Shown here: piece after piece, positions 45,794 through 60,806 of the stretch
Position numbering within the stretch: the first letter of the stretch is position 1
Layout: every line of letters begins with the position of its first letter
Source of the DNA: an uncultured Methanoregulaceae archaeon
GTDB taxonomy: Archaea; Halobacteriota; Methanomicrobia; Methanomicrobiales; Methanospirillaceae
Assembly (NCBI GenBank): GCA_963701095.1
Contig: OY969564.1
Coordinates: 1,280,001 to 1,344,000, forward strand
Length of the DNA stretch: 64,000 nucleotides
Direction: 5' to 3'
Made by a program: the position numbers and the translations under genes
Notes under the pieces: generated by a model
Databases searched by the model: none
The model's input: only the letters and a program-made list of their open reading frames with translations
Told to the model about the DNA's origin: nothing

Positions 45794-46762
45794 TTATCCT
45801 TGTTTTCCAAGAATCCCGGTAATCGCTTCGCCGAACTCCATTGTCCCGGCAGAACCCCCGATATCCCTTGTACGGATGCCGGAAGCCAGTACCTTAGTTA
45901 TAGCTGATTCTATCCGTCCGGCTCCTTCATTGTCCCCGAGATACTCAAGAAGCATTGCAGCGCTCCGCAACGCCGCCACAGGATTCGCGATGTTCTTACC
46001 TGCTATATCCGGGGCACTGCCGTGAACCGGCTCAAAAAGGGCGTACCTGTCGCCGATATTGGCACTCGGGACAAGGCCAAGGCCTCCCACAAGATATGAT
46101 GATACATCAGAAAGGATATCGCCAAAGATGTTCGTGGTTACGATTACATCATAAGCCTCTGGGTGCTGAAGAATATCGAGACTCAGTGCATCGATGAACT
46201 TGTCATTGTAAACTATTCCCGCTTTTTTTGCTTCAGCTATGCAGATGTCACGGAAAAAAACGTCGGATTTGAGAACATTTGCCTTGTGCCCTATGGTGAG
46301 TTTTCCTTTTCGTTGGTGTACACACCGTAATGCTGCTCGTGCGATCCGTTCTGTTCCCCTACGGGTCACGACCCGGAGCGTTGTAGCACGATCCTGTTCT
46401 ATCTCTTCGATCCCCGAGTACAAGCCTTCAGTGTTCTCCCTGACAATCATGATGTCAAAACCGTCACCCCGGATGGGCCTCAAGTTTGCAAACAGATCGA
46501 GCGCTTTACGAATCCGTAGAACAACGCTTTGGTAATCTTTCATCGGCGGTGTCGTTATTGCCCCGAACAGTACGGCATCAGCCGTTTTGAGCGCGGAAAT
46601 GTCGTTATCTTTGCAAGGGCACCCTGTTTGTTCCCAACGCCCATAACCTACCTCTACCGGGAAGAAGTCATAATCGGGATGAAGCAGAAAGAGCACTTTT
46701 TGTGCGACCGGAATCACCTCATGACCGATCCCGTCACCTTCGACTATAGCAATCCGGGTCAT
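45794..46762 (-). CDS. aksF: Homoisocitrate/isopropylmalate dehydrogenase family (probable AksF)
   Basis: GDGIGHEV, RENTEGLY, NIFGDILSD, EPVHGSAPDIAG; in operon with aksA/D/E. Confidence 0.78.
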   Translation of the reverse strand: MTRIAIVEGDGIGHEVIPVAQKVLFLLHPDYDFFPVEVGYGRWEQTGCPCKDNDISALKTADAVLFGAITTPPMKDYQSVVLRIRKALDLFANLRPIRGDGFDIMIVRENTEGLYSGIEEIEQDRATTLRVVTRRGTERIARAALRCVHQRKGKLTIGHKANVLKSDVFFRDICIAEAKKAGIVYNDKFIDALSLDILQHPEAYDVIVTTNIFGDILSDVSSYLVGGLGLVPSANIGDRYALFEPVHGSAPDIAGKNIANPVAALRSAAMLLEYLGDNEGAGRIESAITKVLASGIRTRDIGGSAGTMEFGEAITGILGKQG

Positions 46763-47560
46763 CTTTTCCTCCAAAGGGTGACCAGTTCCCGGACAGACCG
46801 GGCAATCTTTGCGGGATCCGCCCCCCAATGGACTATTGCACCGAACTTATCGTTCCATGTACCGATACCTTCACGTTCGGCCCGGCAGCACCGGGCAATA
46901 AACGGCTCTTCTTTTACCTGTTCCAGAGGACAGATATTTTCGAGCTCAAAATCCGTGCCATAGCATTCGGTACAGAATTGCTTTGCCGTAAGACAACCGG
47001 CGACACGTTCACCCCCCTGAAGAGGATCGGCATCCAGTGTCCGTAGATAACCCGCGGCCCTGCAGGGATAAACATCAGCAGGGACTAAAGTGATGTCACG
47101 GATATGATAGTCAAACGCTACCGAGAGTTCTCCGAAAAGTCCGATTGCCTCCATTTCCATAAGGCTCGCCGAAAGGGTCGGACGGGGCGGAATGACATCG
47201 TAGATGTGAATCGTGAGGAATCCTGACAGATCCGGATCAAGTACAAATGTTACGTGCTCATCAATACCTGTAAAAATGGTACACCGGTGCCCGCTTTCAG
47301 ATGCGAGCCGGACCAGCCGGACCCTGTCGTTGAGCTGTACTTTCTCCGGGAACCAACAAACTTCTTCGGGAGTCGCCAGAATCTTGGAGGATATAACTTT
47401 CCTCATAACACTTTTCAGCTGCCGGATCAAGAGTAACTTCAAGTATCTCGTATCCCCGATCCGTCTCATGCAGAAGATAACGGCTCAAGGCATAAACAGC
47501 ATCACCACAAGGCCGTGTCGATGCCAGTCCCACGTATTTACATTGTTCCGGGAAGATCAC
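46759..47560 (-). CDS. Cys-rich hypothetical protein in aks operon; frameshift at ~47413
   Basis: GTG start overlaps the aksE stop ([11 protein letters not shown]...); C-terminal YPCRA, GCLTAKQFCTECY, NICP, RCCR. Confidence 0.75.
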
Positions 47561-48028
47561 CGGCGAGCCCTCCAGTATTTCACAAGGCCACCAGCCATTA
47601 GGATCTCCTGCATCCGGGGTGACAGCGGGCAAATAGTATATCGTTTTCCTCTCGACTCTACCCATCCACCCGAAAGGTCAAATTCAATCGTGCTTCCTTC
47701 TCCACAGGTAAGATCCGATTCGATAAGCGGAAGGCCTATGTTAATTGCATTCCGGAAAAATATCCGGGCAAATGAGGGGGCAATAACGGCAACCACTCCG
47801 GCCTCCCGTAAGGCAAGAGTCTGCCTGTTCCCGGGATGAGCCACACCCGAAATTTTTGCCAGCGACAATCACGGCACCTTTGAGACGAGGGGCAAGCAAA
47901 GGATCGAGATCTTCGAACACGTGAGTCGCCCAGACATCATAATCCTTGGTCCGTAAGTACCGGCCGGCAATTATAACGTCGGTATCGATATCCGCCGGGA
48001 GACATACGGCTATCCCTCTCCCCCGCAT
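47557..48028 (-). CDS. aksE: Homoaconitase small subunit; frameshift at ~47820
   Basis: [14 protein letters not shown] (YLRT loop typical of methanogen homoaconitase), [27 protein letters not shown]. Confidence 0.85.
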
Positions 48029-49239
48029 TATCCTACCTCCGGTGATGTCATTTCGCCTTCGAGAGCGCTTGCCGCTGCCGTTGCAACGGATCCGAGGTAA
48101 ATTTCTCCGCCAATACCCATTCGGTTTTTAAAATTCCTGTTTGCCGTTGATAAACAGACTTCGCCTTCTCCAAGTACCCCCATATGGTAGCCAAGGCAAG
48201 GGCCGCATCCTGGCGTTCCGATGGTGCATCCGGAACCGACGATATCTGCGAGTACGCCTGTCCGGATTGCTTTTTCGAGAATTGAGGCTGAAGCCGGGAC
48301 AACGATGGTCCTCACGGCAACTTTCTTTCCCCGGACCAACCGGGCAAATCTGGCGAGATCAGAATACCGGCCATTTGTACAGGTGCCGACAAAGACCTGG
48401 TCGATTGGCACACCTGCTACCGCATCTACGGGTTTTACCGTGTCCACACGGTGAGGTACAGCGACAAGGGGTACGATATTGCTGAGATCGAAATCGAGTT
48501 CCCTACGGTATATACAGGATTCGGGTTCCTGACACAACACATCATGTCCATGCTCCTTCAGGAAACGGATAGTAACGTCGTCTGAATAGAAAAGCCCCGT
48601 TTTTGCCCCTGCTTCGACAGAAAGGTTTGCAAGAACGAGACGTTCATCCATGGACAGGTAGTGCACGCCTTCTCCCACAAACTCAAGTGCATCATAGGTC
48701 GCACCGTCAGTACCGAGTTTACCTATGTAGGCAAGCGCCAGATCCTTGGCTTCCGCAGCTCCCGTCAACCTGCCGGTCAGATTGATACTGATTGATTCAG
48801 GAACCCGGAACCAGGTTTCACCGGTCAGCCAGATGGAAGCCATATCGGTTGCGCCCACGCCGGTTGCAAACGCTCCGAACGCACCCATCGTAACACTGTG
48901 GGAGTCAGCACCAACAACAATCTCACCTGGCAGTACAATACCTTCACTCATCAGCTGATGGCAGATACCACAGCCAACGTCGGAGAACTGCATAGACGAT
49001 CTCTTCGCAAAATCCCTGAGATCATGCTGGAGTGCCGCCGTTGTACTATTATTGGCAGGGGCTATATGGTCAAACTGAATATAATATCTGGTATCTTTTC
49101 CCAGCCGATCTCCACCCATATTTTTCCATGCCTCTAGTGCAAGGACACCGGTTCCGTCATGGGCATATGCCCTGTCAACTTTCCGGTCTACATATTCCCC
49201 AGCAGATGCACCAAGAATACGTTCGGAAAGGGTACTCAT
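48028..49239 (-). CDS. aksD: Homoaconitase large subunit
   Basis: [47 protein letters not shown]. Confidence 0.85.
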
Positions 49240-50366
49240 ACTGTAGTCTCCCGTTGTACCCGTCGGATCAGTTTCTGGAGAATTTCAGGGGTAATACTGC
49301 ATTTCTGTTCGGAATGTTCCTTGACAAGATCCAGCACCCGGCATATCTGGGCCTCTGATAGTTCCTCGCCAAGTGAAGCAATAATGTGTTCGAGCGCCTT
49401 TCTCCCGGTATGTTTACCAAGAATAAAGTGACGTTCGCCCCCTACAAGGGCTGGGGGGAAGTACTCGTAGGTTGACGGATCTTCAAGAATTGCCGCAATA
49501 TGAATGCCACTTTCATGCGAGAATGCAAGATCTCCGGTTATCGGTTTGTTTTTCGGAAGCATAATGCCCGAATATTTTTCCACTTTTTTGGAAAGTCCTG
49601 ACAGGTGTGAAAGATCATACCGGTCTATCCCACCTTTTGTCCGGAGGATTACCAGCACTTCCTCCAGTGCTGCATTACCAGATCGTTCGCCTATACCGTT
49701 GACTGTCGTGTGGAGCTGGAAAGCACCGGCCTGTGCGGCAGTAACCGTATTTGCGACAGCACATCCCATATCGTTGTGGCAGTGAGCGCAGAATGGACGA
49801 TCAACAGAAGAGACAAGATCTGTCATAATCGTTCGCATCTCATCCGGGATCAGGCATCCTACCGTATCCGCAAAACTGAGCAGGACAGCCCCGTGATCAG
49901 CTGCACGCCGGTAAACTTCCTTGAGAAAAACAATATCGGTCCGGGATGCATCCTCAGCCGCAAACCTAACAGCAACCCCGTGGTCCCTGGCGAAATCGAT
50001 CATGGAAAGGGCATCTTCTAGTACTTTTTCGCGAGGTTTTCGGAACTTAACCCGGATATGGAGATCTGAAGTGGGGATAAAGATGGAAACCATATCAACA
50101 CCGCAGTCTATGGCTGCTGTGATATCCTCTTTCCTTGCCCTTGCAAACCCGCAAATCCGTGCATCAAGCCCGAGATGTGCGATCGTTTTTACGCACTGTT
50201 TCTCGTTTTCAGAAACTGCCGGGAACCCGGCCTCTATCACTTCAACACCGACAGCATCAAGTGTTCGGGCGATATCAATTTTTTCTTCGCAGGAAAACGA
50301 CACACCGGGTGTCTGTTCTCCGTCTCGCAGCGTTACGTCACAGATTTCAATATTCCACGGTTTCAT
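49236..50366 (-). CDS. aksA: Homocitrate synthase-type 2-oxoacid acetyltransferase
   Basis: DVTLRDGEQTPG, HCHNDMG, NGIGERSGNA, HESGIH. About 376 aa and lacks the LeuA/CimA regulatory domain. Confidence 0.82.
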   Translation of the reverse strand: MKPWNIEICDVTLRDGEQTPGVSFSCEEKIDIARTLDAVGVEVIEAGFPAVSENEKQCVKTIAHLGLDARICGFARARKEDITAAIDCGVDMVSIFIPTSDLHIRVKFRKPREKVLEDALSMIDFARDHGVAVRFAAEDASRTDIVFLKEVYRRAADHGAVLLSFADTVGCLIPDEMRTIMTDLVSSVDRPFCAHCHNDMGCAVANTVTAAQAGAFQLHTTVNGIGERSGNAALEEVLVILRTKGGIDRYDLSHLSGLSKKVEKYSGIMLPKNKPITGDLAFSHESGIHIAAILEDPSTYEYFPPALVGGERHFILGKHTGRKALEHIIASLGEELSEAQICRVLDLVKEHSEQKCSITPEILQKLIRRVQRETTV

Positions 50367-51618
50367 GATGAGCTCCTTTTGGGCACTGTGCTTCGACCAC
50401 AACTGTTAACGGACCATCCGGGTAGCGGATAATATCACGGAGGCGACTTTCATCTTCAGCGGGACAGATTTCCGGGTCTGCCCAATCGATGTAGCGGGCA
50501 GGATTACTCACGGGTTGGCCTCCAGTCATCGCGGCGCAGTGATTGCTCATAACAATACACAAGAGGGAGAGCCTTTTTTCATATACATCGATAAGGGCAT
50601 TGAGACCGGAGTGGAGTAGTGCATAGTCACCTATTAGTGCCACATGAGTACTCCGTGCCGCAACCGCAATACTCGAACCCATCCCATAGCTCGCAATCCC
50701 CAGTTCGTACGGTGGGTTCATCACAAAAACCGAGCACCCGGCATCACATATCAGGCGCATTCCTTTTTCCCTGAGGATACCAAGGAGGGGTTTATAAGGA
50801 CACACGGCACAGAAAGTCCGGCCAAATCCCCGTTCTTCCAGTGATTCCGGCCTTTCCTGTTGAGCCGGGGGTGCATGAGTTCGATGATCCTGTACAAAGG
50901 ATCGGCCGTACTCATTCACCTTCGGAAACGATGCAACACGCTCTGGTACCGGATTGACTGTCACGAGTCGGGAAACCCCCGGTGCAGGACCTGCACCGAG
51001 AATTCCTCCCTTCCACTGGTTCAGGGGTGACATTTCCGACCACATAAACATCGTGCGGTAAGTTTCCTCTGCCGCAGTAACTCTACCGTGCATTGTCCAG
51101 GACTTGTCGGCAAGCTTTCCTTTTCCCTGATGCCGGGGAACGGGGGTACCTGAGATCTCAGCGTCTAACAGATAATGTGTAAGCCGGAGCATGGCGACAC
51201 GGGAAAATCGTTCCGATGCCTCAAGGGCTGATTCTACACCGGTAAAACAGGTCTCGTCGTCAGGCTCAATTACGGGAAGCTCTGCCAGTTCCCCGTAATA
51301 CCGGGAATCCTGCGCTGTCTGGGAACCTTTGGCTTCAGGATCGTCACCTACAACGAGAATGATGCCTTTTTCGATACCTTGTACTGATGCCTGGGCAAGG
51401 GGGTCAGCACACGCGTTCACTCCCACATTTTTTATTATAACTGCAACGCGTTGACCGGAGAGGGAATCACCAAGCGCATACTCAAGTGCCGTCTTTTCGT
51501 TGATGACCAACTCGGCACCGGTTAATGTGCCAAGTTCTGTTACCGGAAAACCTGGAACGGTATATTGACGGTCAGTACCTGCACGTATTGCCCGAGCCAG
51601 CGCTTCAGCACCTTTCAT
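50347..51618 (-). CDS. ThDP-dependent enzyme, truncated IorA-like
   Basis: VPGFPVTE, INEKTALE, KNVGVNACADP, FCAVCPY, CDAGCS, GDYALLHSG...N..AMTGGQP; no ferredoxin domain. Confidence 0.85.
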   Translation of the reverse strand: MKGAEALARAIRAGTDRQYTVPGFPVTELGTLTGAELVINEKTALEYALGDSLSGQRVAVIIKNVGVNACADPLAQASVQGIEKGIILVVGDDPEAKGSQTAQDSRYYGELAELPVIEPDDETCFTGVESALEASERFSRVAMLRLTHYLLDAEISGTPVPRHQGKGKLADKSWTMHGRVTAAEETYRTMFMWSEMSPLNQWKGGILGAGPAPGVSRLVTVNPVPERVASFPKVNEYGRSFVQDHRTHAPPAQQERPESLEERGFGRTFCAVCPYKPLLGILREKGMRLICDAGCSVFVMNPPYELGIASYGMGSSIAVAARSTHVALIGDYALLHSGLNALIDVYEKRLSLLCIVMSNHCAAMTGGQPVSNPARYIDWADPEICPAEDESRLRDIIRYPDGPLTVVVEAQCPKGAHHETVEY

Positions 51619-52582
51619 TCGTCCCTCCCGGGCACAAGGTCGCAACCCCCGCAAACCGTGCACATGGTCAGCGCACTTGAAGTGTCAAGTCCGTTACGGG
51701 ATAAAGCCCGGCTGTGTTTTGCAAAGAGTTTTTTGAGTCTTTCAGCCGAAGGCCGTGATTGTCCCGCATACCCTGCAACCGGATTAAGAGGTCGAAGCAC
51801 CGGGATCACGCCATGAGATGTGAGTCTATCGATACAAGCCTCCATTTCTTCGTCGGTTTCACCGAGCCCGACAATTACATTGGAGAAAACCCGGCCTTTC
51901 CCGAAGAGTTCCACGGAACGATCAAGAATCCGCCAGAGGAGTTCATAATCGAGACCCGGGCACACTGCTTCAAAGAGGTCAGGTGTTGCAGCCTCAAGAT
52001 TAAATTTTACTTCCGCTACTCCAAGGGCATGGAGCTTGTCTGGAGTCTGATCTGTCGGGTAGATGGAGACCCCAAGAGGCAGGCCAAAGAACTTCAAATG
52101 ATCGATAACCTCACAAATGTAATTCTCCTCCTCTTCAATACTATCATAAACGCCGCTTGTCAGCGATATGGCACTCACACGGTGCCGGACGGATTCGACG
52201 AGATCCATAATTTCTTCTATAGTCTTGCGTTTTCCCGAGAGCCGCGGAACTGAACAATAGCGGCAGGAGAATATACAACGTTCTGTAACTGTGATAAATG
52301 CCTGATCCGGGCAGTGAAGCCCCGCCGGAGGAGTCTACCGGAGATCTGGCGATCGCCTAAATACAGATCGGCAACTCCATCACCCCGGTGAATAATTTCG
52401 ACTCGGGAGGTTTGGTTAATGGCCAACTTTACCCGGTGGCCGCCCATAGCAAAAAAAACCGAACCCTTTCCGCCGGCACCGGGTCCGGCAGTAGATTTTG
52501 CAATAAATTCATCGGCAGCTTCTCCACTAAGACGGGCAGAACCGGTCTCAAGTAACAAGGCCTTTAGATCTTCCCATTGCAT
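51615..52582 (-). CDS. Radical SAM protein (biotin-synthase-related type); frameshift at ~52328
   Basis: Rejoined frame HCPDQAFITVTERCIFSCRYC (CxxxCxxC), SNVIVGLGET, C-terminal CTVCGGCD. Confidence 0.88.
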
Positions 52583-53460
52583 AATTTGAGTGCCTCCTCA
52601 TAGCGGGTATAAAATGGCAGGGCAGTTACTGCCCCGGTAATTCCTCTACCGTCCATGACTATGTGAAGAGAGGGATCATCAATTTCCCTGACAAGATCCG
52701 GTGTCACTTCCCCCCGTTTGACTTTTCTTGCGTAATCCAGCAGCTCTTGTGATGGGGTAAAACCCGTATAAACCGCCATTCCGGTCTTTTCTGATAGGGT
52801 ATATCTTTGGAGAAACTCGCTAAACTTACTGATGAGAGATTCCGGTTTTGTGGTACCAAATTCAGCAACGAGACTTACACAATTCTTTGTCCGAAATGCT
52901 ACCGGGAAGAGCTGGACAATCGTATGCGACAGGTACGAGGTGTGTTCATCTTCGACTGCACGTGCAAGGTTATGGACAAGCGTCCACGTTGCACCTTCTT
53001 CAGATGTATCGGTGTCGTCCACTCCGATAAGCACCCGCTGACGCCGGGGCAGCCAGAGCGTCGCAGCTGCTACTTTTCCTCCGCCGGCTGGATCACAGTG
53101 TTCCCGCAGTACTCCACGGGCCGCAGCACGGCAGGATGTGGCACCGACCCCACCCCCGCCCATACCAATATAAGTGACCGCTATTTCATCTCCCGAAACG
53201 GATACCCCTGAGATACCTGCAGGGAACCTGGATCCTTCCAGTGCGAGATTCTCATTACCAGGATGTAGCAGGAACCGGGTTGTTCCTCCCACGCACCTGA
53301 CATTCTCAACAAGTGGGCTCTTGGCGTAATGGTGTTGGGTCCACATCGCACCGCCTATACAGTCAAAAAATTCGACTAACTCGACTTTGCTACCGGTATC
53401 ATCTGCCATCGCCACGATCTGGGGATACCTGATGATATAAGGTTCAGAGATGTTCACCAT
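52564..53460 (-). CDS. Methanogenesis marker protein 11-like (TiaS N-terminal-like domain)
   Basis: PYIIRYPQIVA, VEFFDCIGGAMW, GMGGGGVGA, IGVDDTD...GATW, QLFP...TKNCVS, GRGITGA. Confidence 0.8.
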   Translation of the reverse strand: MVNISEPYIIRYPQIVAMADDTGSKVELVEFFDCIGGAMWTQHHYAKSPLVENVRCVGGTTRFLLHPGNENLALEGSRFPAGISGVSVSGDEIAVTYIGMGGGGVGATSCRAAARGVLREHCDPAGGGKVAAATLWLPRRQRVLIGVDDTDTSEEGATWTLVHNLARAVEDEHTSYLSHTIVQLFPVAFRTKNCVSLVAEFGTTKPESLISKFSEFLQRYTLSEKTGMAVYTGFTPSQELLDYARKVKRGEVTPDLVREIDDPSLHIVMDGRGITGAVTALPFYTRYEEALKLCNGKI

Positions 53461-54400
53461 ACAGACCCGCCGCCTCAATCCCCCGGTTCCCCCAGAGCAC
53501 TGCACCTAACGCACCAATCCTTCCCTTTCTACCGTTCCTGTCAAGAAACTCGACACCCAGCCTCCGGGCTTCCCGCTCAGTATCTTCAAGAGCAACAATC
53601 TCGGTTTTGATAGTCTTATGCATCGGGGACTCCTCAACTGTCCCAATTCCTCGGACCACTGCAATTCCGGTATCATTCGAGAACGTATGCTCTTCTATAA
53701 ATGAGCGAACAAATTCGCAAAGCGGCCCAGTGCTCCCAGGACGGGTGGCGAAATTGAGTGCGGAACACACGCAGTTTGTAGTTTTATGAGGGACTGCAGG
53801 GTTAAGCTGGACAAGACGCATACCGAGGAATTCCACACCTTTGATACGACATGCTTCAGCACATTTGAGTGCTGTAACCCATGTCGCACCTTCCTGTTTG
53901 GTATCCGTATCGTCAATGCCGAAACAAACTTTCTCGTACCGGGGGGTTACGATTCTCACGTGATTTATCCGGGCGCCGCCTATTTTCAGATCATCTTCGG
54001 AGGGATATTCCGACCGGAGGACTCCAGGAGCCTGCGGAAGGCATGCAGCAATGCCGACACCGGCACCGGCAATTCCCACCCAGGTTGTCATGACCTCGTC
54101 ATCTTTTACTTCAACTGCTTCCAGTGCCTGTCCCCCAATCGTTTCCGACGCTGCCCCGAAGTTGATCGCATGTCTGCCGAAGCGTGCCCTCATCGTCATC
54201 ATTTTTCCTTCAACATTGCACGCGATCATTGCACCACCTGCACGAGATCGGTTCATGGCATCCCACTCTATTGTTCCCCGGGCATGGCACTGCTCAAGAA
54301 TTTCAGCAAGCCCTGTCTTTTCGTCGACCATTACCAAAAATTTCTTCGAGAAAAGCTGGCCAAACCGTTGCTTGACATCATCCGGAGTAAGTATGATCAT
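53444..54400 (-). CDS. Second marker-11/TiaS-like paralogue
   Basis: GIAGAGVG, FGIDDTD...GATW, VQLNPAVPHKTTNC, GRKGRIGALGA. Confidence 0.75.
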   Translation of the reverse strand: MIILTPDDVKQRFGQLFSKKFLVMVDEKTGLAEILEQCHARGTIEWDAMNRSRAGGAMIACNVEGKMMTMRARFGRHAINFGAASETIGGQALEAVEVKDDEVMTTWVGIAGAGVGIAACLPQAPGVLRSEYPSEDDLKIGGARINHVRIVTPRYEKVCFGIDDTDTKQEGATWVTALKCAEACRIKGVEFLGMRLVQLNPAVPHKTTNCVCSALNFATRPGSTGPLCEFVRSFIEEHTFSNDTGIAVVRGIGTVEESPMHKTIKTEIVALEDTEREARRLGVEFLDRNGRKGRIGALGAVLWGNRGIEAAGLYGEHL

Positions 54401-54482: not shown

Positions 54483-55367
54483 TTAAAGAACGTTGGAAAG
54501 TTCGATCTTGAACGGTCCAAGAGTGCCGCCAAAATTACCAGCCGAGATAAATTTTATGCCGGGAACTTGCACTGCAGCCTTGATACCTGCTCCCATCGCA
54601 GCAGCCACACTTTTCTCATCGATACCATCGATAACAATTTCATAGACTGCTTTGACACCGGCGGGAACCTTGCTGTCCGAAACTTTCTCACGGAGTGTGG
54701 GACAGTATTTCTCATTAGTCGATGCAGTCATGAATTTGTACTTCAGACTACCGACCTTTGACCCGCTTGCCACGATGCCCCCGGGGAAACTTGTAATGAC
54801 ACCTTTTACATCCGCGATGGCATCCGATGCCGCTTGGGCTGCCATGAGCGCTGCCATCTGGTTCTCTCCCATGATAAAGAAGTTACCACCGGCAACACCT
54901 TTTACAATGCCAAATTCTTCTTCGCCGATATATTCGCCGTTCATGATCGGGATCACCCAGCATTTCCTGCCACCAACTTCTTTCTGATACTCGTACCCGT
55001 CACCAAAGAAATGGAGTTTTACCGGGATCTTTTCCTCAGCAGTGGTGATACCGTTGAATACTGCTGTAGTAGGTGCAGTTAGTACGCATTCGGCAAGACG
55101 TTCGACGACCTGCTCTTTGAGTTTCTTCTTGCTTGCACAGATGAGAATCGAAACGCCCGGCCTTCCATCGGGCGTCTCGCTGCCGGAAAGGACGCTCTCA
55201 ATACCTGCTTCGCAAGGGCAGCCAATCGCAGATGTCGCAAAACCGGTGGCTTCCGTTGCCGCCTTAAGTGCCCAGTCTTTTGTTACTGCGGTGATAATAA
55301 CCCGGCAGACCCAGGTAGGGAATGCCTCCGCGTAGGTGTTGTCAATTGTTACGCCATTAATTTCCAT
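54483..55367 (-). CDS. ftr: Formylmethanofuran:H4MPT formyltransferase
   Basis: MEINGVTIDNTYAEAF, TGFATSAIGCPCEAG, TPDGRPG, FPGGIVASGSKVGS, ISAGNFGG. Confidence 0.97.
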   Translation of the reverse strand: MEINGVTIDNTYAEAFPTWVCRVIITAVTKDWALKAATEATGFATSAIGCPCEAGIESVLSGSETPDGRPGVSILICASKKKLKEQVVERLAECVLTAPTTAVFNGITTAEEKIPVKLHFFGDGYEYQKEVGGRKCWVIPIMNGEYIGEEEFGIVKGVAGGNFFIMGENQMAALMAAQAASDAIADVKGVITSFPGGIVASGSKVGSLKYKFMTASTNEKYCPTLREKVSDSKVPAGVKAVYEIVIDGIDEKSVAAAMGAGIKAAVQVPGIKFISAGNFGGTLGPFKIELSNVL

Positions 55368-55639
55368 ACTATCATTACCTCAGGTATTTACCAAAAGTAC
55401 CTTGATTCTTAGTGGATAAATTTTCTCATTTGTTCGTGATGTATCTAAGAGCGCACCGGAATTGCACTAAAAAGTATACCACTCGTACTTAACTTGAACT
55501 GTGTGCTTATAAATAAAAATTAAAAAAAATTAATAAAACTACCGGGTTGGAGCGATATATTTCAGAACATTTATCTAGCTACTTTTACCACTCTTTTGAT
55601 AATCGATTTTGAAATCGATCATAGCTGGTGCGTGAACCA

Positions 55640-55909
55640 ATGGCATTTGAAGTGCAGATCAATTCCGGTAAACGCACCGGCTGTAACAATGGTGTTGTTG
55701 CATGTCCTGTGGACGCGCTGGAACTTTACACGGTGGTTCCGGAGCCAATTGTAAATATCTGCACAAACCGGGATGAAGTAGCGATAATCCCGGGCCTCAA
55801 AAATGTGCTCCTAACCGCCGGGTGCGGTGAATGCGTCCAGACGTGTCCGCATGATATTATCAGGCTGACAGGGCCCTGGGAAACCAGAGCAAAGGCAAAG
55901 GTGCAATAG
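55640..55909 (+). CDS. FmdG/FwdG-like ferredoxin, degenerate (several Cys ligands lost)
   Basis: xTGCNNxVVACPVDALEL and xAGCGECVQTCP; located just before fmdF. Confidence 0.65.
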   Translation: MAFEVQINSGKRTGCNNGVVACPVDALELYTVVPEPIVNICTNRDEVAIIPGLKNVLLTAGCGECVQTCPHDIIRLTGPWETRAKAKVQ

Positions 55910-55932
55910 AGGAACAGCGTGAGGGTTATTTC

Positions 55933-57106
55933 ATGGCATTGTTTCCAAAGTTTTCCAAAAAGAGGGATGGTGTCAACGTTGTGATGGAGCAGCGTCTCCT
56001 CCAGAACGTGAACAACCTGATTTTGAATTCAGAGACCTGCACGGGATGCGGTATCTGCGTCGAGTCGTGTCCTGAGGATGCTATTGTCCTCGGACTTGTC
56101 GGTGCAGCCCGCCGGGGTGCCATTAATTATGCGACGCCGGTCGATATAGACGAGACTAAGTGCTCGGTACTGCGGTGTTTGTGTCATAATGTGCCCATTC
56201 AATGCATTGACTCTGAAAGTTGACAATCAGGAGCGGCTTCCCATAGTTGAAAAAGAGGGATTCCCGCAGTATGACATGAAGGCAGAGATTGATGAAGAAA
56301 AATGCGTAAGGTGCACGATTTGTGAAGAGGTCTGCCCGCGTGACGCAATCGATCGTAATGTTCCTGCATACGAAGGGACCTATAAGGGACCGGTTGCCGG
56401 AGCAAAGGATCGCCAGACGGCACTTACAGCAAAGACCACCTTTACGGTAGATAAGGAGAAATGCACTCTGTGCGGTATCTGTGGTGCACTCTGTCCTGCC
56501 ATAAGGGTCAAGCATAAGGAATTTACTGCTGCGAGTGGAAAAGTCGAGGGCGATGTGATCTGGGATGAGACCAAGTGTGACGCATGCAAAGTGTGTGTAG
56601 AAGCCTGCCCTGAAGAATGCATCACCGTTGAACGCGAGGTCATCTCGGATAAGGTAAGTGGCAAAGTCACCATTATACAAGATAACTGCTGCACATGCAC
56701 GTGGTGCTCGCGCAATTGCCCAACTGAGGCAATTACGGTCGAGAAAATCTTTGAAGGCGATATAGAGTTCCATGCGGAAAAATGTCCCGGTGGTTGCTCG
56801 ACCTGCGCAGAAATATGTCCAGCAAATGCGATCTATCTTCCAAGTGAGAAACCAGCAGCAGAGATGGGGCACAATATTGAACCCACCATCGCAGTTAACA
56901 AGGATTATTGCATTCTGTGCGGTGCCTGTGTTGATGCTTGCCCCGGTGAAGACATTATCGTGCTTCAACGTACTGGTATCCGGATGAAAGGCACGGAAAC
57001 TGATCTCTTCAAGAAGATCAAGGAGAAGCTCTTTACGAAGAGAACCTCGAAGGTGAAGGAAGGTATTGCCGGTCAGGTCGGACTAAAAATGATGGAGAAG
57101 GCGTGA
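55933..57106 (+). CDS. fmdF: Polyferredoxin subunit F of formylmethanofuran dehydrogenase; frameshift at ~56166
   Basis: About 8 CxxCxxCxxxCP motifs across ORFs 55933..56223 and 56189..57106; adjacent to hdrCBA-mvhD. Confidence 0.88.
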
Positions 57107-57118
57107 GGGAGGACGAGT

Positions 57119-57700
57119 ATGGCAAAAACAAAAGGTTACCCGGAAGCGCTGGAGAAAAAACTCCACGATCAGCGGTATTACCGTGAAGACTCGAATCCTG
57201 ACTTTATTAAGAAAGTCGAAGGGAGTTCACGAACCATCGCCCATATGTGCTATCAGTGCGGCACCTGCACCGGCTCGTGTCCTTCTGCACCTAGAAGTAC
57301 CTACCGTATCCGCAAATTCATGCGGAGAGCTGTTCTTGGGCTTGAGAATGAAGCGCTCACCGATCCAGATCTCTGGCTCTGCACCACGTGTTACAGCTGC
57401 ACCGACCGTTGCCCCCGTGACATTGCACCCACTGATGTTATAATGTCCATGAGGAACATGGCATTCACCCGCGATATTATACCGGTGAACTTCCTCAAGA
57501 CCGTGCAGGCAATCTATAGTTCCGGCCACGGTGTGCCCAATAATGACGTTAACCGTGCAGCCCGGGAAAAACTCGGACTCACTCGCGACCCGCCGACCAC
57601 TCATATGTACCCTGAATACATGCCGGCCATCAGGAAGATCATCGACCACTACAACCTCAAGGCAAATGCCGACCGGATTGTCAAGGAACGGGAGGGATAA
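57119..57700 (+). CDS. hdrC: Heterodisulfide reductase subunit C
   Basis: CYQCGTCTGSCP and WLCTTCYSCTDRCPR. Confidence 0.95.
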   Translation: MAKTKGYPEALEKKLHDQRYYREDSNPDFIKKVEGSSRTIAHMCYQCGTCTGSCPSAPRSTYRIRKFMRRAVLGLENEALTDPDLWLCTTCYSCTDRCPRDIAPTDVIMSMRNMAFTRDIIPVNFLKTVQAIYSSGHGVPNNDVNRAAREKLGLTRDPPTTHMYPEYMPAIRKIIDHYNLKANADRIVKEREG

Positions 57701-57706
57701 GAGAGC

Positions 57707-58630
57707 ATGTCAGAATCCAAAGCTAACCATACGTTCGCGTTATACCTTGGCTGTATTGCACCGAACCGGTACCCGGGTGTAGAATCCGCGTCCATCAAAG
57801 GATTCAAGAAACTGGGTATCGATCTGGTCCCCCTCAAGGGAGCAAGCTGCTGCCCGGCCCCCGGTGCGTTCGGTTCCATCGATCTGAATGTTTTTTACGC
57901 TATGGCGGCACGCAACCTTGTACTCGCCGAACAAATGAAGACTGATATTGCCCTGGTCTGCAACGGCTGCTACAAGTCAATCTGGGAAGTTAACCACAAA
58001 CTCAAACACAACAAGGATCTCCGCGATAATGTCAACGAAGTACTCAAAGAAGTTGACATGGAGTTCAAGGGAACTATCAACGTCTATCACGTTGCCGAGC
58101 TTCTCTATAACGACAAATTTGCAGGAGTCGCTAAAATCAAGGACACTGTGGTAAATCCATTGACCGGTGCACGTATTGCCGTCCACTACGGCTGCCACCT
58201 TACCAAACCCCACAAGGACCGGGAGTTTGAAAAGGAGGTCATGTTAAACACCGAGTGTCCGACTTGGATGGAAGAGCTCGTCGCAGCCATTGGTGCAACA
58301 CCGGTTGAGTACCGCAACAAGATGCAGTGCTGCGGCGCCGGTGGTGGCGTCCGCGGTTACGATATCGTCCACTCGCTGGATATTACCAACGAGAAGCTGA
58401 TCAACCTTAAAGAAGCAAAGGTGGATGCATTAACCGATATCTGCCCATTCTGCCAGCTCCAGTTCGACCGCGGCCAGATCGAGATCAAGGAGAAATTCGG
58501 TGTAGAGTACAATTTACCAGTACTGCATTTTGCAGAGCTCCTCGGTCTTGCACAGGGAATGAGCCCACAGGAACTCGGGCTTGACCTGCACGGAATCAGC
58601 TGCGAACCATTCCTGCAGAAGGTGCTGTGA
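57707..58630 (+). CDS. hdrB: Heterodisulfide reductase subunit B
   Basis: CCG domains: LGCIAPNRYPG, SCCPAPG, CNGC, HYGCH, CCGAGGG, CPFCQLQFD. Confidence 0.97.
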   Translation: MSESKANHTFALYLGCIAPNRYPGVESASIKGFKKLGIDLVPLKGASCCPAPGAFGSIDLNVFYAMAARNLVLAEQMKTDIALVCNGCYKSIWEVNHKLKHNKDLRDNVNEVLKEVDMEFKGTINVYHVAELLYNDKFAGVAKIKDTVVNPLTGARIAVHYGCHLTKPHKDREFEKEVMLNTECPTWMEELVAAIGATPVEYRNKMQCCGAGGGVRGYDIVHSLDITNEKLINLKEAKVDALTDICPFCQLQFDRGQIEIKEKFGVEYNLPVLHFAELLGLAQGMSPQELGLDLHGISCEPFLQKVL

Positions 58631-58640
58631 GGTGGTAAAG

Positions 58641-60806
58641 ATGGTCGAAAAGAAGAAAACAACTACCAAAAAGACCGAGACCAAGAAACAGGATACCAAA
58701 AAGCAGGAAACTAAAAAGGAGGCTCCCGTGAAACAGGTAGTTAAGAACCAGGATCCCGCACCGGTCGCAAAATCTGTCTCAGCACCAGGTTCAACAACGA
58801 AACAGGAAGCACGTATCGGTGTCTTCATCTGTCACTGTGGAACCAATATCGCCGGGTCAATGGATATCCCGGCCGTGGAGGAATATGCAAAGACCCTCCC
58901 GAACGTAGCCTATGTTGACAATTACAAGTACATGTGCTCGATGCCAGGGCAGGCTGTGATCAGTAAGGCAGTCAAGGAGAACCACCTTACCGGTGTCGTA
59001 GTTTCTGCATGCTCGCCCCGTCTTCACGAGCCGACCTTCAGGACTGCGACAAAGGAAGCCGGCCTGAACCCGTTCCGGTTCGAAATGGCAAACATCCGTG
59101 AGCAGAACTCGTGGGTGCACATGCACGACCGTGAAGGTTCAACCGAAAAGGCCAAGGATGCGATCAGGATAGCAGTAGCAAAGGCAGCACTTCTTCAGGA
59201 TCTCTTCCCGAAGACCGTGCCCGTTGAGAAAGCGGCGATGGTCGTCGGCGCAGGTGTCGCAGGTATGCAAGCAGCCCTTGACCTTGCAGCAGCAGGTATC
59301 AAGACCTACCTCATTGAATCCGATATGAGCATCGGTGGGCGCATGTCCCAGCTCGACAAAACTTTCCCGACACTAGACTGTTCGCAATGTATCCTTACTC
59401 CGAAGATGGTGGATGTCGGCAGAAGCGATATGATCGAACTCATGACCTGGTCCGAAGTCCATGAAGTCGAAGGGTATATCGGTAACTTCGATGTTACCAT
59501 CCGCAAGAAAGCACGTGGTGTGTTGACACCCAAGGAAGCGGAAGCTCGTGGTATTATCGGCGGCGGCTGTAACGGTTGTGGTGACTGTGAGACAGTCTGC
59601 CCGGTTATCAAGCCCAACGAGTTCGAAGTCGGCATGAAGCCGAGGAAGGCTATCTACATCAATCACCCACAGGTAGTCCCCCTTCTGTATACGATTGACT
59701 TTAATTCCTGCATCAAATGCGGACTGTGTGTGACCGCTTGTGGTCCCGAGAAGAAGGCAATCGACCTCGAATCAAAGGACGAATTTATCAAGGTCAAGGT
59801 AGGAACAGCAATCCTTGCCACGGGTTACGATATCTTCCCCATCGAGAAAAAAGAGGAATGGGGATACAAGCGGTTCGAGAACGTCATCACGAGCCTCGAA
59901 TTCGAACGGCTCATCTGTGCATCCGGCCCAACCGGCGGTCAGCTCATCCGCCCGAGCGATGGTAAGACCCCCAAACGCGTGGCCTTCGTACTCTGTGCAG
60001 GATCGCGTGACAACACCGGTATCGGAAAACCCTATTGTTCCCGGTTCTGTTGCATGTACTCATTAAAGCACGCGCACCAGATCGCCGAGAAGATCCCCGG
60101 ATGCATTCCCTATATCTTCTATATGGATATCCGTTCGTTCGGCAAAGCCTACGAGGAATTCTACTACCGCATACAAGACGAAGGGACAAAGTTCATCCGC
60201 GGACGCGTGGCAAACATCCTCGAAGACTCCAAGACCAAGAACCTCCACGTCTATGCCGATGATACCCTTCTTGACCGCCCGGTCGATATGGAAGTAGATC
60301 TTGTCGTACTCGCCGCCGCAATCGAGCCAAAAACAGATACAAACAGGACCAGGAAACTCTTCGGTGTCTCCTGCTCAATGGATGGATGGCTCCTTGAGGC
60401 ACACCCGAAGCTCAACCCGTGCGGAACCACCACAGCCGGTGTCTTCCTTGCTGGTGTTTGCCAGGGTCCCAAAGATATCCCTGACACGGTAGCATCTGCG
60501 GAAGGTGCAGCATCCGCGGCAAGTATCCCGATTCACAAGGGAGAAGTGGAACTCGAACCGTACTTTGCAACCTGTATTGAGGAGAAATGTGCCGGCTGCG
60601 GTATGTGCGTGAACCTCTGCCCCTATAGCGCTCTTGCGCTCGTGGAAAAAGACGGAAGAACTGTCATGCAGGTTACCGAGGCCAAATGTAAAGGCTGCGG
60701 GACCTGCGGAGGATTCTGTCCTGGTGGCGCAATCTGGATGAACCATTTTGCAACACCGCAGATCGTTGCGCAGATCGATGCGTTCCTGCTCGGAGGTGAG
60801 CAGTAA
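58641..60806 (+). CDS. hdrA: Heterodisulfide reductase subunit A with Lys/Thr-rich N-terminal extension
   Basis: RIGVFICHCGTNIAG, CSPRLHE, GAGVAG, LDKTFPTLDCSQC, CSRFCCMYS, QGPKDIPD. Confidence 0.97.
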   Translation: MVEKKKTTTKKTETKKQDTKKQETKKEAPVKQVVKNQDPAPVAKSVSAPGSTTKQEARIGVFICHCGTNIAGSMDIPAVEEYAKTLPNVAYVDNYKYMCSMPGQAVISKAVKENHLTGVVVSACSPRLHEPTFRTATKEAGLNPFRFEMANIREQNSWVHMHDREGSTEKAKDAIRIAVAKAALLQDLFPKTVPVEKAAMVVGAGVAGMQAALDLAAAGIKTYLIESDMSIGGRMSQLDKTFPTLDCSQCILTPKMVDVGRSDMIELMTWSEVHEVEGYIGNFDVTIRKKARGVLTPKEAEARGIIGGGCNGCGDCETVCPVIKPNEFEVGMKPRKAIYINHPQVVPLLYTIDFNSCIKCGLCVTACGPEKKAIDLESKDEFIKVKVGTAILATGYDIFPIEKKEEWGYKRFENVITSLEFERLICASGPTGGQLIRPSDGKTPKRVAFVLCAGSRDNTGIGKPYCSRFCCMYSLKHAHQIAEKIPGCIPYIFYMDIRSFGKAYEEFYYRIQDEGTKFIRGRVANILEDSKTKNLHVYADDTLLDRPVDMEVDLVVLAAAIEPKTDTNRTRKLFGVSCSMDGWLLEAHPKLNPCGTTTAGVFLAGVCQGPKDIPDTVASAEGAASAASIPIHKGEVELEPYFATCIEEKCAGCGMCVNLCPYSALALVEKDGRTVMQVTEAKCKGCGTCGGFCPGGAIWMNHFATPQIVAQIDAFLLGGEQ

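Follow-up and report, generated by a model that had tools for sequence, protein, structure and literature searches.

TiaS-like paralogs in an operon with coenzyme B precursor genes of a Methanoregulaceae archaeon: a possible role of methanogenesis marker protein 11 in late coenzyme B biosynthesis

Coenzyme B is required for every known methane-forming and methane-oxidizing reaction of methyl-coenzyme M reductase (MCR), and the last steps of its biosynthesis are decarboxylation, thiol formation, threonine ligation, and phosphorylation. In cell extracts studied by White and co-workers, 7-mercaptoheptanoate was reportedly linked to threonine at the expense of ATP, after which the resulting compound was phosphorylated. 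TiaS (tRNA(Ile2) 2-agmatinylcytidine synthetase) phosphorylates a carbonyl oxygen for attack by an amine and also autophosphorylates its residue Thr18. An excerpt of one study describes the TiaS kinase domain as acting on RNA and on protein (PMC11938285), and according to an excerpt of a paper from 2023, no enzymes are known for four late coenzyme B intermediates (PMC10384328). Here, we describe two adjacent genes for TiaS-like proteins in a stretch of 64,000 nucleotides (the window) from an uncultured Methanoregulaceae archaeon (assembly GCA_963701095.1, contig OY969564.1, positions 1,280,001 to 1,344,000 of the forward strand). The first encodes methanogenesis marker protein 11 proper (mmp11; 52564..53460, minus strand, 298 aa) and the second a diverged paralog, here called parA (53444..54400, minus strand, 318 aa). 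The initial annotation of the window described marker protein 11 as lacking an assigned function. In the literature searched, with subscription journals outside its scope, neither a function for the protein nor a link between TiaS-like proteins and coenzyme B was found. The designation 'mmp11' in PMC12584684 refers to M. maripaludis locus tags and not to marker protein 11.

The reading put forward here is tentative and is given a probability of roughly 0.4. It holds that parA and mmp11 are small-molecule enzymes derived from the TiaS core rather than tRNA-modifying enzymes, that mmp11 catalyzes an ATP-dependent late step of coenzyme B biosynthesis, and that parA is a lineage-restricted partner. 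Homology, fold, motif conservation, operon structure, and recurring neighborhoods are shown, whereas ATP use, the substrates, the order of steps, the dimer, and any division of labor are inferred. The strongest argument for one common pathway comes from gene neighborhoods. Two unrelated families of thiamine diphosphate (ThDP) enzymes occur in the same position beside mmp11 and homologs of the Aks genes for the coenzyme B precursor. A common pathway with a ThDP enzyme would need the decarboxylation of a 2-oxoacid, as coenzyme B synthesis does in the pathway outline of PMC3087415 (section 14.5).

Both genes are intact minus-strand open reading frames (ORFs) that fill these coordinates, and parA lies upstream of mmp11. 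The mmp11 frame is open up to 53505, and 53460 is most likely its start because 298-aa homologs cover 100% of the protein from that methionine; parA and mmp11 would then overlap by 17 nt. Contigs assembled from four public DNA runs, all of one study, contain no indels inside either gene. The two proteins share 36% identity over 166 residues (BLASTP, E 1e-21), confirming that they are paralogs of about 300 aa. Close homologs bear source names that put the archaeon in the genus Methanoregula. Against TIGR03280, the model of the marker family, mmp11 scores 331 bits and lies above the cut-off of 255.8, which makes it a member, while parA, with 190.6 bits, lies below. The TiaS_TCKD model PF22641 matches both proteins above its cut-off of 27 bits (parA 55.0 bits, mmp11 48.2 bits). 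The profile searches thus agree with the affinities to marker protein 11 and TiaS that had been read from the sequence at the outset.

The remaining modules of TiaS were also sought. The model of the TiaS FLD domain (PF08489) matches mmp11 weakly (25.9 bits) and parA not at all, and a Pfam scan of both proteins detected neither an OB fold nor a zinc ribbon. In contrast, the TiaS of this genome, a 423-aa protein encoded elsewhere on the contig, displays TCKD, FLD, and Zn_ribbon_TiaS (PF23783, 55.3 bits) together with a weak OB fold (PF01336), so that the early observation that the pair ends without a tRNA-binding tail holds. NCBI records name parA orthologs 'tRNA(Ile2) 2-agmatinylcytidine synthetase.' On the TiaS equivalog model NF040849, parA reaches 36.7 bits versus a cut-off of 600, and mmp11 is not listed at E <= 0.001; by the present sequence tests, the NCBI name is wrong. 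A family tree was constructed from 56 sequences, comprising 53 full-length representatives at 50% identity and the three paralogs of this genome, and leaving out the shorter fragments among the 150 listed matches. Four clades were recovered: mmp11 proper (27 rows), parA (11 rows, value 99), a clade fused to a winged helix-turn-helix (wHTH) domain (8 rows, value 100), and a fourth clade (9 rows).

Structural predictions point in the same direction as the profiles. The AlphaFold models of mmp11 (predicted local distance difference test, pLDDT, 91.5; predicted template modeling score, pTM, 0.90) and parA (pLDDT 92.1, pTM 0.89) both match the TiaS-tRNA-ATP structure 3amt_A with a root-mean-square deviation of 2.1 Å. 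For mmp11, 151 residues of the model range 140-296 are aligned (Z 19.9), and for parA, 154 residues of the range 155-314 (Z 20.2); Foldseek gives an E-value of 1.3e-7. Whole-model structure searches are dominated by this C-terminal half of each protein, the TCKD-type core. The N-terminal ~140-155 residues form a family-specific domain in both parA and mmp11, and a language-model look-up with residues 1-139 returned only members of the family itself (scores 0.79 and 0.75). The motifs first noted in the two proteins are conserved in both clades as G(I/V)DDTD...GATW, QL.P...KT.NC, and GR.G.(I/T)GA. In two alignments (A1 with 28 and A2 with 15 sequences), DDTD, G.T, QL, KT.NC, S..T, and G..G.IGA show no or almost no variation. 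The DDTD motif and a threonine seven residues later are invariant in both clades and align with the DDTD and threonine of TiaS in 4rvz, 3amt, and the genome's own enzyme; we take this threonine to correspond to Thr18, the autophosphorylated residue of TiaS.

Judged by sequence, either protein might catalyze amide formation, phosphorylation, or another reaction, and amide formation is most likely for mmp11 by analogy with the activation of a carbonyl oxygen by TiaS. In the preferred scheme, mmp11 would phosphorylate and thereby activate the 7-mercaptoheptanoate carboxyl, which the amino group of L-threonine would then attack to form the amide. The enzyme may also phosphorylate the threonine hydroxyl. 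In this archaeon, parA and mmp11 probably associate head-to-tail as a pseudo-symmetric dimer, with the N-terminal domain of each chain predicted to lie over the conserved motifs of its partner. This arrangement would create two unlike composite sites, which could divide the two ATP-dependent steps between them. A more specific version, which we regard as a long shot, takes the parA/mmp11 heterodimer to be the missing coenzyme B synthetase: one site would form the amide through a phosphorylated carboxyl, the other would phosphorylate the threonine, and in single-copy organisms a homodimer would do both.

Modeling of the complex, which the initial annotation had called for, produced a heterodimer that passed its controls, with a score of 0.71 (runs of 0.72, 0.71, and 0.69) versus 0.00 for the best of three controls. 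Contact agreement is at least 76% and the pLDDT of the partner at least 83. The complex score had been calibrated on solved complexes, of which 116 of 157 reached the mark, and on mismatched pairs, of which 2 of 215 did; these figures apply only roughly here because our own alignments were used. The predicted interface is head-to-tail. Helix 34-44 of the mmp11 N-terminal domain packs on parA residues 193-199, 208-211, and 307-313, and parA residues 40-53 pack on mmp11 residues 178-186, 193-195, and 287-293. Among the interface residues are W159 and N193-C194, conserved in mmp11, and the corresponding positions of parA.

The pair belongs to an operon of nine overlapping or closely spaced genes on the minus strand, running from parA through an AksF-like gene. 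Next to mmp11 lies the gene encoding a radical S-adenosylmethionine (SAM) enzyme of the MSMEG_0568/variant-rSAM/LipS2-like type (51615..52582, minus strand), which contains a CxxxCxxC motif and a C-terminal CxxCxxC motif. It is followed by the gene for a shortened IorA-like ThDP enzyme (50347..51663, minus strand), which scores 144 bits on TIGR03336, far below the cut-off, matches TPP_enzyme_C, and is a candidate 2-oxosuberate decarboxylase. An AksA-like enzyme of the homocitrate/isopropylmalate synthase family (49236..50402, minus strand) scores 440 bits on TIGR02090 and 464 on NF002085, below the subfamily cut-offs. The HacA/AksD-like large subunit (48028..49239, minus strand) exceeds the cut-off of the hacA_fam model TIGR01343 (459 bits) and stays below that of HacA_Meth (411 bits, cut-off 550), and the HacB/AksE-like small subunit (47557..48028, minus strand) matches HacB2_Meth with 72.8 bits on its N-terminal piece. 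Between the HacB-like and AksF-like genes stands a gene for a DUF7714 protein (46759..47469, minus strand; PF24830, 243.5 bits). The AksF-like enzyme of the (homo)isocitrate/isopropylmalate dehydrogenase family (45794..46828, minus strand) scores 375 bits on TIGR02088 and 328 on AksF2_Meth, both below the cut-offs.

In the window, the radical SAM and HacB-like genes are each split by an apparent frameshift. The contigs of all four public DNA runs mentioned above contain an extra G behind 52323 and one base fewer at 47820. Since they differ from the assembly exactly at both frameshift sites, the breaks are assembly errors and the operon is intact. Consensus errors at 47820 and 52323 may also explain the completeness estimate of 86% for the assembly. 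Upstream of parA, 82 nt away, lies the gene for Ftr, the formylmethanofuran:tetrahydromethanopterin formyltransferase (54483..55367, minus strand; TIGR03119, 411 bits, above the cut-off). Divergent from the operon, at 55628-60806 on the plus strand, are ORFs that by eye resemble polyferredoxin, HdrC, HdrB, and HdrA; heterodisulfide reductase (Hdr) recycles coenzyme B. The mcrA gene is situated about 0.9 kb beyond the end of the window (G000:C1:1344887-1346539, plus strand) and about 11 kb from mmp11, and in several relatives (e.g., G020, G233, G313, and G087) the two genes are 12-17 kb apart on one contig.

The neighborhoods of mmp11 in other genomes were compared in three samples. The same-phylum sample comprises 19 loci of 20 kb, with families labeled f1, f7, and so forth, and was searched with the cluster genes by tblastn. 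The named-record sample comprises the closest 80 loci, all of Methanosarcinales or Methanomicrobiales type, and was scanned with an 8-sequence alignment. The metagenome sample comprises 80 loci of more distant relatives, falling into 14 clusters at 65% identity. Apart from differences in parA, the operon is complete in 5/5 Methanomicrobiales loci of the same-phylum sample; the Ftr gene precedes the cluster in all five, and the DUF7714 gene keeps its position in all five and also occurs in a Methanocellaceae record (L121). In other families, mmp11 adjoins the ThDP enzyme (f7, 4/4 loci; f23, 2/2; f29, 1/1) or the radical SAM gene (f14, f16, and f30). In these relatives, a single ORF encodes the radical SAM enzyme, with a length of 321-327 aa in one f14 locus and the five Methanomicrobiales loci and of 346-351 aa in f16 and f30.

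The tblastn searches gave no matches to cluster genes in the f8 and f10 loci, where Pfam and NCBIfam scans then identified the neighbors. Genes of the ycaO-tfuA-hycI-like type precede mmp11 in f10, and an f8 locus contains a distant radical SAM enzyme beside mmp11 (hhalign probability 99.9, E 9e-34) along with a divergent thioredoxin reductase. The latter exceeds its cut-off in L041 (TIGR01292, 390.5 bits versus 343.45) and was identified by Pfam or blastp in other loci. An arrangement in which mmp11 overlaps a radical SAM gene of the MSMEG_0568 type and faces a thioredoxin reductase gene was observed in f8 loci of McrA-less genomes (L041:8623-11596 and L056:8384-11517) and in L148, L153, L155, and L166.

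In 42 of the 80 named loci, the gene immediately after mmp11 encodes the IorA-like ThDP enzyme; these include Methanolobus, Methanococcoides, Methanomethylovorans, Methanohalophilus, Methanosarcina, and metagenome-assembled genomes (MAGs) of the ANME-3 type of anaerobic methanotrophs. The Methanocellaceae MAG (L121) has the order aksA-mmp11-ThDP enzyme, divergent from hacA-hacB-aksF-DUF7714, and several named ANME-2 records have no recognized partner beside mmp11. In the metagenome sample, an Aks homolog occurs within 6 kb of mmp11 in 42/80 loci and 5/14 clusters; of the 39 loci whose flanks each span 3 kb or more, 31 have such a neighbor. The genes adjoining mmp11 in this sample encode radical SAM enzymes (11 loci, 4/14 clusters), Mmp4/MtxX (4), thioredoxin reductase (4), and YcaO/TfuA (2). 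The order hacA-hacB-aksF-ribH-mmp11 was found in L161 and L212, whose large subunits exceed the HacA_Meth cut-off of 550 in NCBIfam (591.6 and 571.3 bits). In L158, which represents one distant lineage, genes for AksA-like, Mmp4, HacA-like, and HacB-like proteins are followed by an acetolactate-synthase-type ThDP enzyme, mmp11, and a FAD oxidoreductase. The ThDP enzyme (L158:6463-7983, plus strand) lies directly before mmp11 and contains all three TPP domains, and it looks like a non-orthologous replacement of the decarboxylase represented elsewhere by the IorA-like enzyme. Altogether, mmp11 is linked to Aks homologs, a ThDP enzyme, or both in at least five gene orders. Mmp4/MtxX, a marker protein with the PTA fold, lies between AksA-like and HacA-like genes in L149 and L158 and follows the radical SAM gene and mmp11 in L145 and L147; it may belong to the same pathway as mmp11.

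In a sample of 301 genomes across the phylum, TIGR03280 has matches in 170, of which 160 score above the cut-off, and McrA occurs in 172, in largely the same families; homologs of mmp11 also bear the source names Methanofastidiosum and Ca. Methanosuratincola. The property of a marker, to be found in methanogens and only in methanogens, does not hold for mmp11, and the exceptions in f15 and f8 fit the word 'imperfect' applied to marker protein 11 by the Joint Genome Institute (JGI). In f8, mmp11 was found in 19 of 58 genomes and McrA in 6 of 58, all 6 of which also have mmp11. Orthologs of the ThDP enzyme (at least 440 bits on its own profile) occur in f1-f7, f10, f14, f23, f29, and f32, while f8, f12, and f15 have only IorA-level matches of about 290 bits. 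Five f15 genomes without mmp11 each encode one large subunit of the LeuC/HacA type, versus two or three in five comparison genomes. The f15 genomes may therefore lack the whole Aks route, and the absence of mmp11 would then be a co-loss; f15, whose McrA scores are divergent, is guessed to be ANME-1-like. No such co-variation was seen in f8, where five genomes without mmp11 and three with it alike have two LeuC/HacA-type subunits. A co-occurrence test with the radical SAM profile was rejected, as a second widespread subfamily also matches it at about 350-370 bits.

The paralog parA is more restricted. Of the 41 genomes searched in the order, at least about 25 encode a parA-level protein beside mmp11 among the matches listed, and clear orthologs with 52-54% identity occur in f14. 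Two lineages only were thus found to carry this duplicate, which is dispensable for the operon and not always linked to mmp11.

Several observations weigh against the reading proposed above. Direct searches did not find parA in G025 or G087, the latter a member of the window's own family, and both genomes keep mmp11 and all other cluster genes. All 47 of the 47 f7 genomes have a single TIGR03280 match. In 3/3 f14 loci, parA lies ~0.8-1.8 Mb away from mmp11 and is followed in the same direction by Mmp4/MtxX (L140:5530-7342, L141:6371-8298, and L142:6639-8436). The invariant Arg111 of mmp11, which stands behind a glycine-rich loop, is not conserved in parA, whose N-terminal part has an invariant or near-invariant N..R.RAGG stretch in its place; the two proteins are thus not interchangeable. 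As the chains are paralogs, the heterodimer model may reflect only an interface of the ancestral homodimer. McrA occurs without mmp11 in f15 (22/23 genomes versus 1/23) and f12 (2/2 versus 0/2), and conversely 13 McrA-less genomes of f8 match TIGR03280, 11 with scores above the cut-off. Lastly, mmp11 is the last gene of a run of ycaO, tfuA, and a gene for a HycI-like protease in 11 of the 80 named loci, all of one lineage. These points bear most heavily on the initial proposal that the two proteins form a ligase/kinase pair making the amide and the threonine phosphate of coenzyme B. What stands of it is that the pair resembles TCKD-type ATP enzymes without tRNA modules, that mmp11 is linked to genes for the coenzyme B precursor, and that the two chains can be modeled as a heterodimer. 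Its generality does not stand, given the single-copy f7 genomes, the missing parA of G025 and G087, and the distant parA of f14, and the idea of a specific ligase/kinase pair is therefore weak.

This genome encodes a third mmp11-like protein, with an N-terminal TrmB-like wHTH domain. Its gene directly follows that for homoserine dehydrogenase (NF004912, 433 bits), an enzyme of the threonine pathway, in an adjacent minus-strand pair (L003:1456-2565 and L003:2549-3535). The same order was found in 9/9 other Methanomicrobiales loci (L224-L232) and in 0/2 f14 loci, and this linkage hints weakly at a hydroxy amino acid as ligand. The wHTH paralog was also considered as a substitute for homoserine kinase and rejected, as ThrB is found in 0/60 Methanomicrobiales but also in 0/47 f7 genomes, which do not have the paralog, making its absence unspecific.

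An unlikely though plausible alternative is that the pair acts together with the radical SAM enzyme in the sulfur step of coenzyme B, or of another thiol cofactor, rather than ligating or phosphorylating threonine; it might, for example, supply an acyl-phosphate or activated carbonyl to the radical SAM enzyme or to the PTA-fold protein Mmp4/MtxX. The MSMEG_0568-type gene adjoins or overlaps mmp11 in Methanomicrobiales, f14, f16, f30, and f8 as well as in the 11 metagenome loci from 4 clusters, and its product has a second cysteine triad, as sulfur-inserting enzymes do. Mmp4 recurs next to the same genes (radical SAM-mmp11-Mmp4 in L145 and L147, AksA-Mmp4-HacA in L149 and L158, and parA-Mmp4 in 3/3 f14 loci). 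However, mmp11 of all 47 f7 genomes adjoins the ThDP enzyme and has no adjacent radical SAM gene, the co-occurrence of the radical SAM enzyme is blurred by the second subfamily that its profile matches, and the chemistry is conjecture. It is quite unlikely that the mmp11 family has a role wider than coenzyme B, for instance one in which an amino-acid-like metabolite undergoes some other amide or phosphoryl transfer at the expense of ATP, and that the aks linkage reflects just one lineage-specific use. Such a role would accommodate the 13 TIGR03280-positive f8 genomes without McrA, where the context in the two loci examined is a radical SAM enzyme and thioredoxin reductase, and the existence of four clades, one of which is the wHTH-fused paralog behind homoserine dehydrogenase. 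Yet it would be difficult to account for the linkage to aks or ThDP genes, which recurs in at least five different gene orders, if no pathway were shared.

The genes ycaO and tfuA are the McrA thioglycine genes, and their position with a gene for a HycI-like protease before mmp11 in the 11 named loci, also seen in the ycaO-tfuA-hycI-like-mmp11 runs at L042:7144-10454 and L058:9939-13325 and nearby in L154 and L156, could suggest that these proteins act in maturation or post-translational modification of MCR. The status of the family as a methanogen marker and the ~11 kb between the operon and mcrA in this genome are in keeping with such a role, but it is very unlikely: mmp11 occurs without McrA in f8 (13 genomes), in f15, where 22 of 23 genomes have McrA, mmp11 was not found in 22 of 23, and an excerpt of PMC9584954 gives Mmp3, Mmp7, Mmp17, and A2, and not Mmp11, as partners of McrC. 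That parA and mmp11 modify tRNA or another RNA, as TiaS does, is highly improbable. The TCKD fold, the conserved DDTD and threonine, and the source names of parA orthologs would fit, whereas the TiaS equivalog score far below its cut-off, the missing OB fold and zinc ribbon that the genome's own TiaS retains, and the position of the pair in a biosynthetic operon speak against RNA modification.

If mmp11 performs one or two of the late steps, as the coenzyme B reading proposes, reconstitution of the coenzyme B pathway would become possible. Inhibitors of methanogenesis could then target mmp11, which would also be the first small-molecule enzyme with the rare TiaS kinase fold. The tandem paralog parA makes the proposal concretely testable, with and without the partner.

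Among described families and enzymes, the closest by name is TIGR03280, which JGI calls 'methanogenesis imperfect marker protein 11' and whose earlier name was DUF1743; mmp11 is a member, and parA forms a clade of its own. By location, the closest are AksA, HacAB (AksD/E), and AksF, which share the operon and are recurrent neighbors of mmp11. However, these elongation enzymes have folds unrelated to that of mmp11, and they produce 2-oxosuberate rather than carrying out the late steps of coenzyme B synthesis. By structure, the closest is TiaS (3amt, 3amu, 3au7, 4rvz, and 5xob), which shares with the pair its TCKD-type core, a portion of the domain behind that core, and the G..G.IGA motif in the C-terminal part. 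TiaS continues into an OB fold and a zinc ribbon, whereas parA and mmp11 end right after the TCKD/FLD-like part and carry an extra N-terminal domain of ~140-155 residues; in addition, the pair has KT.NC where TiaS has KTRGN and QL where TiaS has RL. The second-best structural match (Z 15.1 and 15.7; profile E-values 7e-15 and 4.4e-23) is P. furiosus 3u02, a protein of ~250 aa that does not have the N-terminal domain of mmp11 but that, like parA and mmp11, is a stand-alone TCKD-type protein without the tRNA-binding modules.

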